27,422 nucleotides of DNA from IMG/VR virus record IMGVR_UViG_3300035208_007474, one strand, 5' to 3'. A model generated the notes under the pieces. It made no database searches and was not told the origin of the DNA. It saw only the letters and a program-made list of their open reading frames with translations. Source of the DNA: a virus. A program made the translations under genes and the position numbers. Below are positions 10,075 through 26,527 of the stretch, one piece after another (positions within the stretch are counted from its first letter, which is position 1; the number at the start of each line of letters is the position of its first letter).

Positions 10075-10117
10075 AGAGCTAGTTAAAATGTACATTGGGT
10101 TCTCCGTAAGGAGGTAA

Positions 10118-10786
10118 ATGAGTAATTTTAAACGATATGTCGAAGAAGGAAGAGAATGGCGTGGGAAATATCCCAAGACATATCATTTCAGTTTTTCGCC
10201 AAATCTTCAAAATGATGACAGGATGTTAGAAGATGACAATATCCTTGTTGGAAAGAATGTCGTTGTAAGCGAAAAATTAGACGGCGAAGGAACCGGGATG
10301 ACCAGAATTGTATGTCACGCTCGTTCTTTGGATTCTAGGGACCATCCTTCCAGACATTGGGTGAAAGCGTTGCATGCTTCTGTTAAACAAAACATACCTG
10401 AAGGTTGGCATTTTTTTGGGGAAAATTTATTTGCCGCCCATTCGATTCGATACGATAAATTGCCGACATATTTCTTTTTGTTTATGATTGTTAATGATAA
10501 ACAAATGTGTTTGTCGTGGCAGGATACAAAAGAGTGGGCAGAATTGCTCGGACTACAAACCGTACCTGTTCTTTATGAAGGCCCATGGGATATTGAAAAA
10601 GTACAAGCTTGTTACACAGGTCAATGCCCTTGGGGAGAAGCCCAAGAGGGATATGTGGTTCGCAATGCGGCAATGTTTCCGATTAAAGATTTTTCACTTA
10701 ATATGGGGAAATGTGTGCGATACAACCATGTTCAGACAGGTGATTTTTGGATGAAAAATTGGGTTCAGAATAAATTGTCCAAATAA
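10118..10786 (+). CDS. ATP-dependent RNA ligase, Rnl2-like nucleotidyltransferase domain
   Basis: Motif I VSEKLDGEGTGM (KxDG), motif III FFGENLFA, motif IIIa YFFLFMIV, motif IV EGYVVRN and motif V GKCVRY, collinear with the T4 Rnl2 N-terminal domain; strong RBS AAGGAGG. Confidence 0.65.
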   Translation: MSNFKRYVEEGREWRGKYPKTYHFSFSPNLQNDDRMLEDDNILVGKNVVVSEKLDGEGTGMTRIVCHARSLDSRDHPSRHWVKALHASVKQNIPEGWHFFGENLFAAHSIRYDKLPTYFFLFMIVNDKQMCLSWQDTKEWAELLGLQTVPVLYEGPWDIEKVQACYTGQCPWGEAQEGYVVRNAAMFPIKDFSLNMGKCVRYNHVQTGDFWMKNWVQNKLSK

Positions 10787-10809
10787 ATTGTAAATGCACT
10801 CTAATACTA

Positions 10810-10837
10810 TTGACTTTTGAGCGATATTACTTATAAT
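10810..10837 (+). promoter_or_regulatory. Strong sigma70-like promoter TTGACT-N16-TATAAT, placing the tandem repeat array in the 5' UTR of the methyltransferase gene
   Basis: Hexamers at 10810-10815 and 10832-10837. Confidence 0.55.
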
Positions 10838-10854
10838 TAATTTTAACTTTTACT

Positions 10855-23234: not shown

Positions 23235-23341
23235 GTTTCCCAAATTTCGTAGTTGGTTCTTTCAATAATTTTGTTTATGGCTATAATCAAACGAGATTGA
23301 CTTATTAAAAAACTTGTTTTCTAAAAAAAAGGAAGAGAAAA

Positions 23342-25882
23342 ATGCCATCACCGAATGAAGCCATAGACAAAAACGATTTGGTTTTAAGTATAGGCGAATA
23401 TGCTTATATTCAAGATGAAACGAAAGGAATTATTAAAACAAATGTTGGGCCTACAACGGTCAATAAAACGGCCCAAGACCGACCAATTGTTTTTGACCCT
23501 GAGACAAGAAATTTCAAGCGGTGTGAACGTCTTGAAGATGCTCGTCAGAAAAGCCCATTCGCCAGCGAAGGCGAATATATTGTACTGGAAAATCCGGCAG
23601 ACAAAAAGCCCGATGATGGACAAAATATTGCACCGTCATTGAACAATGGACGCAAGGTGAATATCCACGGGCCAGCTACATTTGCTTTGTGGCCGGGGCA
23701 GGCCGCTTCGGTTGTTAAGGGACACATTCTCTGCTCTAATGAATATTTGGTTGTTAGAATTTATAATGAGCAAGCGGCAAAGGAAAACTGGAAAAAAGCT
23801 GTAATGAAGGCGGCACCGATTCAAAAAGACAAGCAACTACTAGACGACAATCAGAATGCCCCGGAAGTAGAAGTTCCTGAAGTGGAGGTAAATTTAAATT
23901 TCTCAATGGGGCAATTAATTGTTATTAAGGGCACCGATGTCAGTTTTTATATGCCTCCAACAGGTGTCGAAGTTTTGCCGGATAATGTTGGCGAATATGT
24001 CCGCAAAGCCGTAACACTAGAACGACTTGAGTATGCCATCCTAGTATCTGAGAATGGCGACAAACGTTATGAACGTGGACCACAGGTTGTGTTCCCCAAA
24101 CCGACTGAGGACTTCTACAGGGACGAACAAGGTAACCGGAAATTCCAAGCCATTGAATTAAATCAGATTCAAGGTTTGAATATTAAAGTTATTGCTCCTT
24201 ATACTGAAAATGACGTAAACTATAAAGAGGGGCAAGAACTTTTTATTACTGGCAAAGATTGTGCAATTTATTTCCCTCGTCCTGAACATAGTGTTATTCA
24301 ATATAGTGGTAAACAGAAGCATTTTGCTACCGCAGTTCCGCCCGGTGAAGGTCGATATATGATGAATCGGGACAATGGCGAAATAACTACTGTCCATGGT
24401 CCGACCATGCTACTTCCCAATCCGATTAACCAAGTGCTGGTCAGACGAATTCTTTCTGATAAGCAATGCAAACTCTGGTATCCCGGCAACGACGAAGCTT
24501 TAGTATATAATCGGCAATTGTCGGCAATGCAATCTGGTATGGACGATGGTACACGTAAGATGGGTTTTGTGCCCGAAACCACAATTTTCGCTGACGTAGA
24601 TGCATTAGACGAATCGGTTAGACAAGCTCATACTGAAATTTTCAAGCGTGGAACACGTCATACACCGCCAAGGCAGCTTACTCTTAATACCAAATATGAC
24701 GGCGTTCCTGCTGTTACAATATGGGTTGGCTATGCTGCGATGATTGTGGACAAACAAGGCAATCGCCGTGTTGAAGTTGGTCCAAAAACTATTTTACTGG
24801 AATATGATGAAACGCTTGAAGCATTGGAACTTAGTACGGGTAAACCGAAAACCACCGACAAGTTGGAAACTACGGCCTATCTTCGTACCAAGAATAACAA
24901 AGTCAGTGACATTGTTGAGAACATGGAAACCAAAGACCATGTTGAATGCTCTGTCAAGCTGTCTTACAGGGTCAACTTTGAGGGCGAACCGCTAAAGTGG
25001 TTCGATGTTGAAAATTATGTTAAATTCCTCACCGACCACCTGCGAAGTGTTCTGAAAGGACAGATTCGCAAACTGGACATTGAAACTTTCTACGCCAATG
25101 GTGTTGATATTATTCGTGACATTATTCTTGGCAAATCAGTAGAAGGCAAGGGTCGCCTTGGTATGTCGTTCGAAGAAAACGGCATGATAATCAAGGATGT
25201 CGAAGTGTTGGACATCCATATCACCGACGAAAAGATTGCGAAGATGTTAGATGAAGCTCAACATGCCAAAATTTCTGGTAATATTCGCTTGAGTCAGGCC
25301 GAAGATGATTTACGCCTCACCAAACGAAGCGAAGAAATTTCCAGAGAGAAAGAGAAACAAAGTTTCTTGACCACTAAACAGGGATGTGAATTAGAAGTGG
25401 AAAAGGTTGGTCAAATTTTGGCCTTAACATTGGCTGAGATTAATTCGGAATTAGAATCTGAAGAGCAACGAAAAGCTGTCCAATTAGCTAAGGAAGCCGT
25501 AGTTGATACCCACCATGCGTCGAATTTAACCAGATTAAAAGCTGAGTCAGACCAGAAGGAAGCACTGGTCGTTGCTGACCACAACAGAAAGTTGCAAGCT
25601 CTCAAAGCTGAGGCTGAGGCGGTTGTGGAACGCTTTAAATCAATTCTGCCCGGGTTCTCCGAAGCATTACTGGCTCTGCAAAATCAGGATACTTTGGTGA
25701 AGGTTGCTGCATCACTGAGCGTTCAGAATTTGCTTGGTGGCAGAAATTTTGTCGATGTGGTTAAGGGAGTGTTCGGTGATACGGAGCTTGGTATTATGCT
25801 CCAAAATGTTATTGGTAAATCTGTTGGTGGTAATGGCAAAAAAATAGCGGCTACTGCATCGACACCTTCGGCTATCCGTTAA
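23342..25882 (+). CDS. Major vault protein (MVP) homolog: N-terminal MVP repeat domains, SPFH/band-7-like shoulder domain, C-terminal coiled-coil cap-helix
   Basis: The first repeat [35 protein letters not shown] matches human MVP [63 protein letters not shown] matches MVP [48 protein letters not shown] matches [34 protein letters not shown] matches FHKNSARIIRTAVFG, and the shoulder block [32 protein letters not shown] matches [32 protein letters not shown]. The matches are collinear over ~800 aa. RBS AAGGAAG. Confidence 0.85.
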   Translation: [846 protein letters not shown]

Positions 25883-25946
25883 AAACTAAAAAGGAGTTTT
25901 ACAATCAAACTGTGGTGGGTATAGTAAGAGATAGAGGTAAGAATAT

Positions 25947-26414
25947 ATGACCACAGAATATGTAGCTAAGGGATTGTTTTTAATCGTCCTTTGTCTTGTT
26001 TTGCTTATTTCGGTGTTTTTGTTGGCACCGCCGTGGGACTTGCCTAATTCATCTGATTCAGAATCAGAATTAGAACAACTTGTGGCCGAGGCGGATAAAC
26101 AATGGGACAATAATCAAAAATCCGCCGCTGTCGAAGGTTACATGTTTATCGTAGGCAGTGATTTGATTAAAACAAAAAAACAATTGTCTAAAATTGATAT
26201 AGAAAAGATGTACAGACGTATCATTGATTTCCAAATTGAGAAAGCTGGCTTAGATGCTGGTAGACCATACATTCGTAAAGCCCTTCGCCAAGGATACACA
26301 CTTTCGCTCAGTACGCCGGAAGCAAATAAGGTTTTAATGGAAGAAATGGGAATGCAACCAAAGACCGCTTGGAATGACGACGCAGCCAGAGAAAATTTTT
26401 TGATAAATAAATGA
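25947..26414 (+). CDS. Membrane-anchored hypothetical protein (N-terminal TM helix LFLIVLCLVLLISVFLLAPP, then an acidic/Ser stretch)
   Basis: RBS GAGGT; 155 aa. Confidence 0.5.
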   Translation: MTTEYVAKGLFLIVLCLVLLISVFLLAPPWDLPNSSDSESELEQLVAEADKQWDNNQKSAAVEGYMFIVGSDLIKTKKQLSKIDIEKMYRRIIDFQIEKAGLDAGRPYIRKALRQGYTLSLSTPEANKVLMEEMGMQPKTAWNDDAARENFLINK

Positions 26415-26527
26415 AACGGTTTGGCAAATTATTATGTAGTTTAGGTTTGCATCGGGATTACTTAGCAGCAGGCAGAACAAAGAGTGCAGGTTTAAAATGT
26501 ACATAGTTTGGCAGAAGTATTTGTAAT

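Follow-up and report, generated by a model that had tools for sequence, protein, structure and literature searches.

We report here that the viral DNA of IMG/VR record IMGVR_UViG_3300035208_007474, a complete metagenome contig of 27,422 bp from the Joint Genome Institute (JGI), obtained from municipal landfill metagenomes and called the window below, carries a short repeated element with the consensus TTAAA[A/T]TGTACAT[A/G/T][G/A]. This element is oriented, non-coding, conserved in an all-or-none manner, self-contained and specific to its lineage, and at one of its sites it is the sole candidate for a transcription start signal. For these reasons we propose, with about even confidence, that the motif may act as a compact, self-contained phage-specific promoter, which would form a second class beside promoters of the sigma70 type.

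The motif was searched for in a 37.1-kb composite, made of the window and of the strain contig L108, which overlaps window positions 1-1295 and adds 9.7 kb leftward. Scanning this composite with a position weight matrix (PWM) gave a bimodal distribution, with six sites at 22.2-23.3 bits and the next match at 13.3 bits; in simulated sequences the top score had a mean of 13.5 and a maximum of 19.7. Within the window, four matches with at most two mismatches to the 15-mer were found, against 0.19 expected, and a second exact copy of the 15-mer is expected only 2.4e-4 times. Moreover, all the non-tandem 12-mers that occur at least three times in the window derive from the motif. The six copies are all non-coding, although only 10.9% of 15-mers are (P about 1.7e-6), and all have the same orientation as the gene that follows. 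An earlier note on this DNA had listed near-identical elements at 10083, 13832, 20557 and 26495, which are recovered here as copies starting at 10083, 13828, 20554 and 26492, and it had proposed a motif search for positional bias relative to gene starts; on the composite, that search yielded six sites that are not spread inside coding regions. Two further claims did not hold. The element presented as related at 16170 corresponds to ATGTACGT... at 16165, which matches 7 of the 8 core letters, lacks TTAAA and is not among the top PWM matches, while the extended conservation written as '..GG.AG.AAGTA' is confined to sites 3 and 4, where it requires an indel, and is absent elsewhere.

Aligning seven copies (the six genomic ones and one in the strain contig L112) showed that 13 of 15 positions are invariant and that 11 of the 13 core letters are A or T. 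The limits of conservation are sharp: it ends at TTAAA on the 5′ side and no more than 2 nt past CAT on the 3′ side, and neither a -35 nor a -10 stands at a fixed distance as a partner. The invariant flanks are asymmetric, with TTAAA on the 5′ side only and a purine/G-rich 3′ side, and every copy has a G at one of the two positions that follow CAT. The 8-bp palindromic core described earlier is partly retained: the dyad ATGTACAT is intact in four of the six sites and broken (TTGTACAT) in the other two, so that TGTACA alone is invariantly palindromic. Because the sub-words GTAC, TGTACA, AATGTA and TAAAAT occur at their expected frequency elsewhere in the sequence, the unit is the whole element. 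All-or-none conservation of this kind is typical of promoters read by phage polymerases or phage sigma factors.

We then considered how the copies are placed relative to genes and to other start signals (Table 1). Copy 1 starts 9 nt past the stop codon of gene 9322-10074, and 20 nt separate its end from the ATG of the RNA ligase gene (10118-10786). Copy 2 begins 37 nt past an intrinsic terminator; the gene for a Mor-like protein with four helix-turn-helix (HTH) units, hereafter 4xHTH, has its ATG another 37 nt past the end of the copy. Copy 3 overlaps the TAA stop codon of gene 20360-20557, and the ATG at 20684 lies 115 nt beyond the end of the copy. Copy 4 begins 78 nt past gene 25947-26414 and is followed by a hairpin with a 14-bp stem and then by a TTGACA/TATTAT promoter. 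The genes downstream of the copies encode RNA ligase, the Mor-like regulator, nucleotidyltransferases and uncharacterised proteins; they are of RNA-repair, ADP-ribosylation and regulator types and none is structural. The assignment to a middle/late class made in the earlier note is therefore not established, whereas its suggestion of a phage-specific promoter, read by a sigma factor or a co-activator, is the best supported one, the motif being oriented, self-contained, found in tandem with ordinary promoters and the sole candidate signal after the terminator.

Ordinary promoters are indeed plentiful on the same DNA. They consist of TTTACAA or TTGACA, a spacer of 16-18 nt and a TATAAT-like hexamer, the typical form being TTTACAA-N17-TATAAT; 70 were found against 48 +/- 6 expected, and the best ones stand upstream of genes. 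At site 3 the motif lies about 31-34 nt upstream of the TTTACA -35, and at site 4 about 100 nt upstream of the ordinary promoter, with the hairpin in between. The L108 copy that precedes a 212-aa gene stands about 75 nt downstream of a TTTACAA/TATACT promoter, and the L112 copy 18 nt downstream of the TATTAT -10 of the promoter at 26607, while no ordinary promoter was seen near site 1 or the second L108 copy. Since the geometry relative to sigma70-like promoters is free (upstream, downstream or none), the motif is better understood as an independent promoter than as an operator. Finally, no sigma70-like promoter was found on the + strand between the terminator at 13760-13791 and position 13880, which makes copy 2 the only candidate start signal for the Mor-like gene.

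Table 1. Positions of the motif copies and of the features discussed with them (window coordinates unless stated).
Feature	Position	Strand	Details
Motif copy 1	10083..10097	+	TTAAAATGTACATTG; 22.2 bits; identical in L114-L117
Motif copy 2	13828..13842	+	TTAAATTGTACATGG; 23.3 bits
Motif copy 3	20554..20568	+	TTAAAATGTACATAG; 23.1 bits; identical in L203-L207
Motif copy 4	26492..26506	+	TTAAAATGTACATAG; 23.1 bits
Two motif copies in L108		sense to downstream gene	TTAAAATGTACATGA and TTAAATTGTACATGG; end 7 and 6 nt before ATG
4xHTH Mor-like gene	13880..14464	+	194 aa, four tandem Mor-type helix-turn-helix units; candidate transcription factor, directly after copy 2
Intrinsic terminator hairpin	13760..13791	+	AAAAAAGCCGCC-UUAU-GGCGGCUUUUUU; folding free energy -21.4 kcal/mol, z-score -5.65
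Sigma70-like promoter TTTACA-17-TAAAAT	20600..20628	+	in tandem with copy 3, upstream of gene 20684
Sigma70-like promoter TTGACA-17-TATTAT	26607..26635	+	downstream of copy 4
Perfect 14-bp inverted repeat	26530..26566	+	TAGTGTCACAAAAA / TTTTTGTGACACTA, 9-nt loop; no U-tract; between copy 4 and the 26607 promoter
Ordinary promoters before genes	4734, 5791, 8778, 10810, 14484, 16193, 19334, 20600, 25898, 26607		sequence scan

That the motif is a promoter, where its transcripts start and what reads it are points that we infer from the DNA, and they can be combined in the following scheme. The 13-nt core TTAAA[A/T]TGTACAT would function as one -10-region element, read by a phage-encoded specificity factor. 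Candidates for this role are an alternative sigma or sigma-like subunit, a phage RNA polymerase, and a co-activator that redirects the host RNA polymerase. The 5′ half of the core, TAAAAT or TAAATT, fits TAnnnT and would serve as the -10 hexamer. Transcripts would begin with the G or A that lies 1-2 nt past CAT, giving G-rich 5′ ends, and counting 7-8 nt from TAAAAT to this purine gives a normal distance between a -10 and a start. The resulting leaders would be about 8-9 nt long for the two L108 genes, 21 nt for the RNA ligase and 38 nt for the Mor-like gene, and longer where an ordinary promoter stands between motif and gene. Genes with both promoter types might be expressed over a longer part of the infection, as in phage AR9, where a gene that has an early and a late promoter in tandem is expressed throughout infection (PMC5312081).

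A housekeeping promoter read by sigma70/sigmaA does not account for the element: no -35 is conserved, the sequences upstream of the copies are unrelated, none was found at site 2, and a sigma70 score of 9/12 is reached only at site 3 (TTTAAA-18-TAAAAT). Other assignments were tried and rejected. TGTACA is identical at 5 of 6 positions to the phage TTTACA and was considered as a -35, but only at site 3 is there a -10 at 16-18 nt downstream of it, and a weak one. An extended -10 (TGn) fails on spacing, a 'CATA' -10 of the sporulation sigma type has no -35 partner, and avoidance of a restriction site is not in keeping with GTAC and TGTACA being at expected frequency.

The kind of element that we propose has counterparts in several phages, in which phage-specific promoter classes differ from one phage to another (PMC7598289). 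In phiEco32, the middle/late promoters consist of a single consensus, 5′-AATGTA-3′, centred at -11.5 and read by the phage sigma factor gp36 (PMC12276001). As in that system, in which gp36 acts with gp79, the motif is a short single element near a putative -10, a strong -35 is absent and sigma70 promoters, which are early ones in phiEco32, occur on the same genome; AATGTA itself is present verbatim in four of the six copies, the other two having ATTGTA, although the start site is here deduced from sequence. Unlike the phiEco32 consensus, the motif extends over 13-15 nearly invariant nt, and the two phages are unrelated (no match in 50,697 phage records). In addition, the phiEco32 spacing would put the start 2-3 nt before two of the ATGs.

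The late promoters of T4 carry TATAAATA at -10 and depend on gp55, gp33 and the sliding clamp. They too are AT-rich 8-mers at -10 only, with no -35, and often stand in tandem with early or middle promoters. The corresponding segments of our motif, TTAAAATG and TTAAATTG, match TATAAATA at only 5 or 4 of 8 positions; TTAAAATG with T4 spacing would put the start on the G or A right after CAT, and the syntenic relatives of the window have accessory genes of T4 type (rIIB and gp30.3 families). On the other side, the invariant TGTACAT has no T4 counterpart, no gp55 or gp33 homologue is present in the available proteins, and the genes downstream of the motif are not late structural genes.

The early promoters of jumbo phages, read by the virion RNA polymerases of phiKZ and AR9, have about 10 highly conserved AT-rich nt centred near -10, are phage-specific, tolerate few deviations and lend themselves to bioinformatic detection (PMC7598289, PMC5312081). 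Our motif is likewise AT-rich, conserved, phage-specific and placed on the sense strand of non-coding DNA. However, these phages are independent of the host RNA polymerase, while the many sigma70-like promoters seen here argue for its use, and no genes for RNA polymerase subunits were found in the 37 kb. Late promoters are AACA-N6-T-A/G(+1) in AR9 and T(-3)ATG(+1) in phiKZ (PMC5312081, PMC7598289). The layout AAA[A/T]-TGTACA-T-[A/G/T] parallels the former, and CATG or CATAG resembles the TATG of the latter with G as the start. In contrast to AR9, AAAA or AAAT stands in place of AACA, there is no C at -9, and the six spacer letters, free in AR9, do not vary here; AR9 recognition also requires uracil in the DNA. 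Promoters of single-subunit, T7-type RNA polymerases share with the motif their near-invariance, orientation, self-containment and an AT-rich stretch before a G-rich start, but they are conserved over about 19-23 bp, compared with 13-15 bp here.

In phage Mu, the dyad bound by the Mor and C proteins has its centre near -43.5, and a -10 can be recognised downstream of it. The likeness to the present case lies in the gene of a Mor-family HTH protein beside one copy and in the short dyad included in the motif. It does not extend to promoter architecture: no -10 follows at a fixed distance in the seven aligned sites, and with two copies ending 6-7 nt before the ATG, any -10 would fall inside the gene.

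The 4xHTH protein also differs from Mu Mor by its four HTH units and by the lack of the dimerisation half, the latter because its match is limited to positions 62-95 of the 107 positions of the Mor profile. It is recognised by the Pfam Mor family (1.1e-8) and by several other HTH families, as well as by phrog_532 (7e-12) and phrog_836 (3e-10), annotated as 'late transcriptional activator'. Its sequence contains four repeats, and an AlphaFold2 model folds these into four three-helix units, with low confidence (pLDDT 62). A word-seeded search of 5.8e9 proteins returned only the protein itself, and no significant match was obtained by Foldseek or by sequence against the PDB. The earlier note had named this protein as a candidate binder of the element; it is a plausible DNA-binding protein, but its only link to the motif is the copy that precedes its gene. 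Two other proteins encoded near copies are ParB/Srx-like (GNRR / GERR box): one (window 12636-13739) lies just upstream of copy 2, and the other (1070-2221 of L108, - strand) is encoded by the second gene behind an L108 copy.

Several observations weigh against a promoter. Pfam and PHROG protein scans of the 37 kb revealed no sigma factor, RNA polymerase or known co-activator apart from the Mor-like protein; in particular, no gene of the gp36, gp79, gp55 or gp33 type, for a single-subunit RNA polymerase or for RNA polymerase subunits was seen in the 37 kb available. The two L108 copies that end 6-7 nt before an ATG would give very short leaders, one of them with no clear Shine-Dalgarno sequence. 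Copy 4 has no close gene and is dispensable in L112, and the downstream genes form no recognisable temporal class. The AATGTA match to phiEco32 involves just six letters, and the bare word occurs at its expected frequency (18 found, 18.4 expected). Finally, the six independent sites all come from one near-clonal population.

Among the other explanations, an operator for a phage regulator, whether the Mor-like 4xHTH protein or a ParB-like one, is possible though on the unlikely side; the motif would then be a repressor, activator or roadblock site and not the promoter itself. The invariant TGTACA palindrome and the wider dyad intact at four of the six sites point in this direction, and a sequence-specific binding protein would also produce all-or-none conservation. 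Furthermore, two copies adjoin ParB-like genes, and the position of the tandem-HTH Mor/'late transcriptional activator' gene right after copy 2 would suit autoregulation. The operator of a dimeric regulator proposed in the earlier note is nonetheless poorly supported, given a dyad that is short and broken at two sites, asymmetric invariant flanks and a single, sense orientation throughout, none of which is expected of a symmetric repressor operator. Position relative to promoters is not fixed either, and because it varies, a single mechanism of repression or activation cannot cover all the sites. A Mor/C-type activator site would moreover need a -10 at constant distance downstream, which is lacking, and an obligatory Mor-like activator could not switch on its own gene, which has only the terminator and the motif upstream: as this gene lies behind a strong terminator, the activator would face a bootstrapping problem. 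With a co-activator as the binder, the operator and the promoter become overlapping explanations. A role at the RNA level, in which a phage RNA-binding protein or nuclease would use the motif as a translational operator, a processing site or a stability signal, seems to us distinctly unlikely. Every copy is on the sense strand in a transcribed spacer, three of them (two in L108 and one in L112) adjoin a start codon or overlap it, a fourth has one 20 nt past its end, and half of the six downstream genes encode RNA-repair enzymes. The consensus selected in vitro (SELEX) for the RegA protein of T4 is reportedly AAAAUUGUUAUGUAA, which resembles UUAAAUUGUACAUGG. Against this, the distance from motif to start codon ranges from overlap to about 195 nt, no start codon lies near copies 3 and 4, and the copies share no RNA fold, the motif being no more unpaired than its flanks. 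No Rfam family matches it, and neither a RegA-like gene nor a nuclease gene was identified. Lastly, a conserved GGA is absent, which makes the phage CsrA an unlikely reader and led us to reject a CsrA target.

The motif might also be the start of short upstream reading frames (M/L-Y-I/M...) whose translation is coupled to the next gene, but this we consider very improbable. It is true that the only variable position of the core retains a start codon, ATG or TTG, and that the frames are 6-21 codons long, three of them stopping at or overlapping the next start (TAAATG, ATGA and ATGA). Coding would however leave TTAAA, invariant upstream of the start codon, inexplicable; no Shine-Dalgarno sequence stands at a constant distance, the peptides show no likeness past residue 3, and those of copies 3 and 4 end far from genes. 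In the strain contigs L114 and L116, an 8-nt insertion shifts the frame and the stop then falls 5 nt before the ATG. Because the insertion moves the stop, the overlap is not kept between strains; it reflects a spacer rich in A/T and in stop codons. We give equally little weight to a signature of recombination or mobility with no regulatory role, such as the end of a mobile regulatory cassette or a homing site. It would fit the 56-59-nt segment around copy 4 that is present in the window and not in L112, the new L112 copy 200 nt away, the indel hot spot formed by the spacer of copy 2 and some flanking similarity between sites 3 and 4. Yet the indel has neither terminal inverted repeats nor target duplications, the remaining copies have no flanks in common, no transposase or homing endonuclease gene lies beside the copies, and their strict sense, non-coding placement points to selection for a function in expression.

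Comparison with close relatives shows how the motif behaves as its surroundings change. Strain contigs from several samples (L108-L117 and L203-L210) are 99.4-100% identical, except L112 at about 96.5%, and the comparative depth is small for this reason. In L114 and L116, whose genomes are more than 99.5% identical, the spacer at copy 2 differs by one substitution, by insertions of 2 and 8 nt and by a deletion of 11 nt; the terminator and copy 2 are unchanged, and the indels alter both distances flanking the copy. The same alignment conserves ATG-13880, and not GTG-13850, as the start of the Mor-like gene. In L112, copy 4 is lost with a 56-59-nt indel and a new copy is found at the start of a small gene, 200 nt downstream of the position of copy 4, which indicates a fast turnover of copies. 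The small gene is a Gly/Pro/Arg-rich open reading frame (ORF; MPNRDGTGPRGKGPRTGRGKGPC..., 26702-26815, and 1960-2019 in L112), which presumably resembles DUF5320. In L112, the motif copy replaces the start of this ORF, so that the frame has no start codon and two other frames are open. The inverted repeat at 26530-26566 is identical in the diverged L112 despite indels on both sides; possible roles are those of an operator or of an RNA stem.

Beyond these strains, no close relatives were found by searching IMG/VR for close homologues of the major vault protein (MVP) or JGI metagenomes for the ADP-ribosylglycohydrolase (ARH), and 50,697 annotated phage genomes gave no nucleotide match to the window and none with two of its proteins. 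The source contig itself was likewise missed by the ARH search. The exact 15-mer occurs in 107 IMG/VR contigs, once in each; second PWM matches in five of these are at the chance level, and those that were checked (L042) lie inside genes. In IMG/VR, about 240 viral contigs encode MVP homologues; many are 100-500 kb long, and in some the genes for a poly(ADP-ribose) polymerase (PARP) and an RNA ligase are nearby (L121, L134). The motif is absent from the 80 MVP loci that were fetched, in which synteny is restricted to MVP, PARP and RNA ligase. RNA ligase relatives with 60-63% identity are syntenic, with the order CoaE-ClpX-GGACT-thioredoxin...RNA ligase...PARP in L199-L201, and L202 has the syntenic order RNA ligase-PARP-rIIB-ARH. 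The closest RNA ligase (66% identity), in L198 (1-12935), is not in a syntenic position. The motif is absent from all five contigs (L198-L202, homologues 60-66% identical), and no relatives of intermediate distance were found in the databases searched. As the syntenic relatives and the fetched MVP loci lack it, the motif is, on the sequences compared, specific to its lineage. A literature search for its core returned only primers. Judged by the same comparisons, the motif sequence is new, no database relative having the same one, while the kind of element is well known. L198 has its own repeated promoter-like motif, TGACCCAGTTATTTTT-N6-AAAATTATAA, which occurs five times after genes and tRNAs; this contig contains 16 tRNA genes in 13 kb, one with the amber-reading anticodon CTA. 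A word repeated in L199, ATATGTGATAA, was rejected as a regulatory element, since it encodes Cys-x-x-Cys in the copy that was translated and two others are inside called genes.

From about 4.8 kb to the end of the window, genes on the + strand follow one another with short spacers, and the products include ClpX, thioredoxin, a PF09414 RNA ligase, a Dam-type methylase, ParB-like proteins, the 4xHTH protein, a WGR-PARP, a NUDIX hydrolase, the ARH, an AcrVA2-like protein and the MVP homologue. An RNA-repair set is formed by the RNA ligase (10118-10786), an AAA_33 kinase (1345-1815) and, on the - strand of L108, a ligase/capping-enzyme-like nucleotidyltransferase (2320-2958), a 2H/CPD-like phosphoesterase (4050-4469) and an RlaP-type nucleotidyltransferase (7838-8721), the latter split into ORFs of 48 and 236 aa; members of this set stand directly behind three of the six motif copies. 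In the RNA ligase gene, the Shine-Dalgarno sequence (10101-10112) is able to form a CUCC-GUAA-GGAG hairpin closed by a GNRA loop, and this structure may restrict translation of the enzyme. The Dam-type methylase gene (10984) has a leader filled, at 10855-10972, by a 12-nt tandem repeat (AACTTCCCTTTC, 9.8 copies, 98% matches) that begins after a strong TTGACT/TATAAT promoter (10810-10837) and varies in copy number among strain contigs, as judged from gene coordinates. Within 12 kb, the window groups the MVP homologue (23342-25882; match to the MVP shoulder, 3e-25), the WGR-PARP (14547-16142), the NUDIX hydrolase (18305-18922) and the ARH (19320-20360), and this vault/ADP-ribose gene set of large phages looks under-described. 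A CsrA homologue (4466-4651, Pfam CsrA 8.5e-16) is encoded on the - strand, opposite to its neighbours. Finally, the 324-aa product of 22260-23234 is assigned to PF26125 (AcrVA2-like, anti-CRISPR) in the precomputed Pfam annotation of strain contigs, an assignment absent from our own Pfam scan at E<=0.01.

If the motif is a promoter, this virus would be one more large lytic phage with its own compact promoter class beside promoters of the host type, and the understanding of phage transcription would stay unchanged unless the motif were read by a factor of a new kind. Such an undescribed transcription system, with motif-specific machinery that has no detectable relative and in a lineage whose relatives carry the MVP, PARP and RNA ligase genes, appears improbable to us; in it, the 4xHTH protein would act as a single-chain specificity factor that directs RNA polymerase to a -10-only promoter, or an unseen phage polymerase would read the motif, with RNA-repair enzymes in the regulon. 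The motif is a sequence tag by which other pieces of this genome can be recognised in landfill metagenomes. As a promoter, it would also provide a handle on the timing of expression of RNA-repair and ADP-ribosylation genes in an uncultured phage that is an orphan in the databases.

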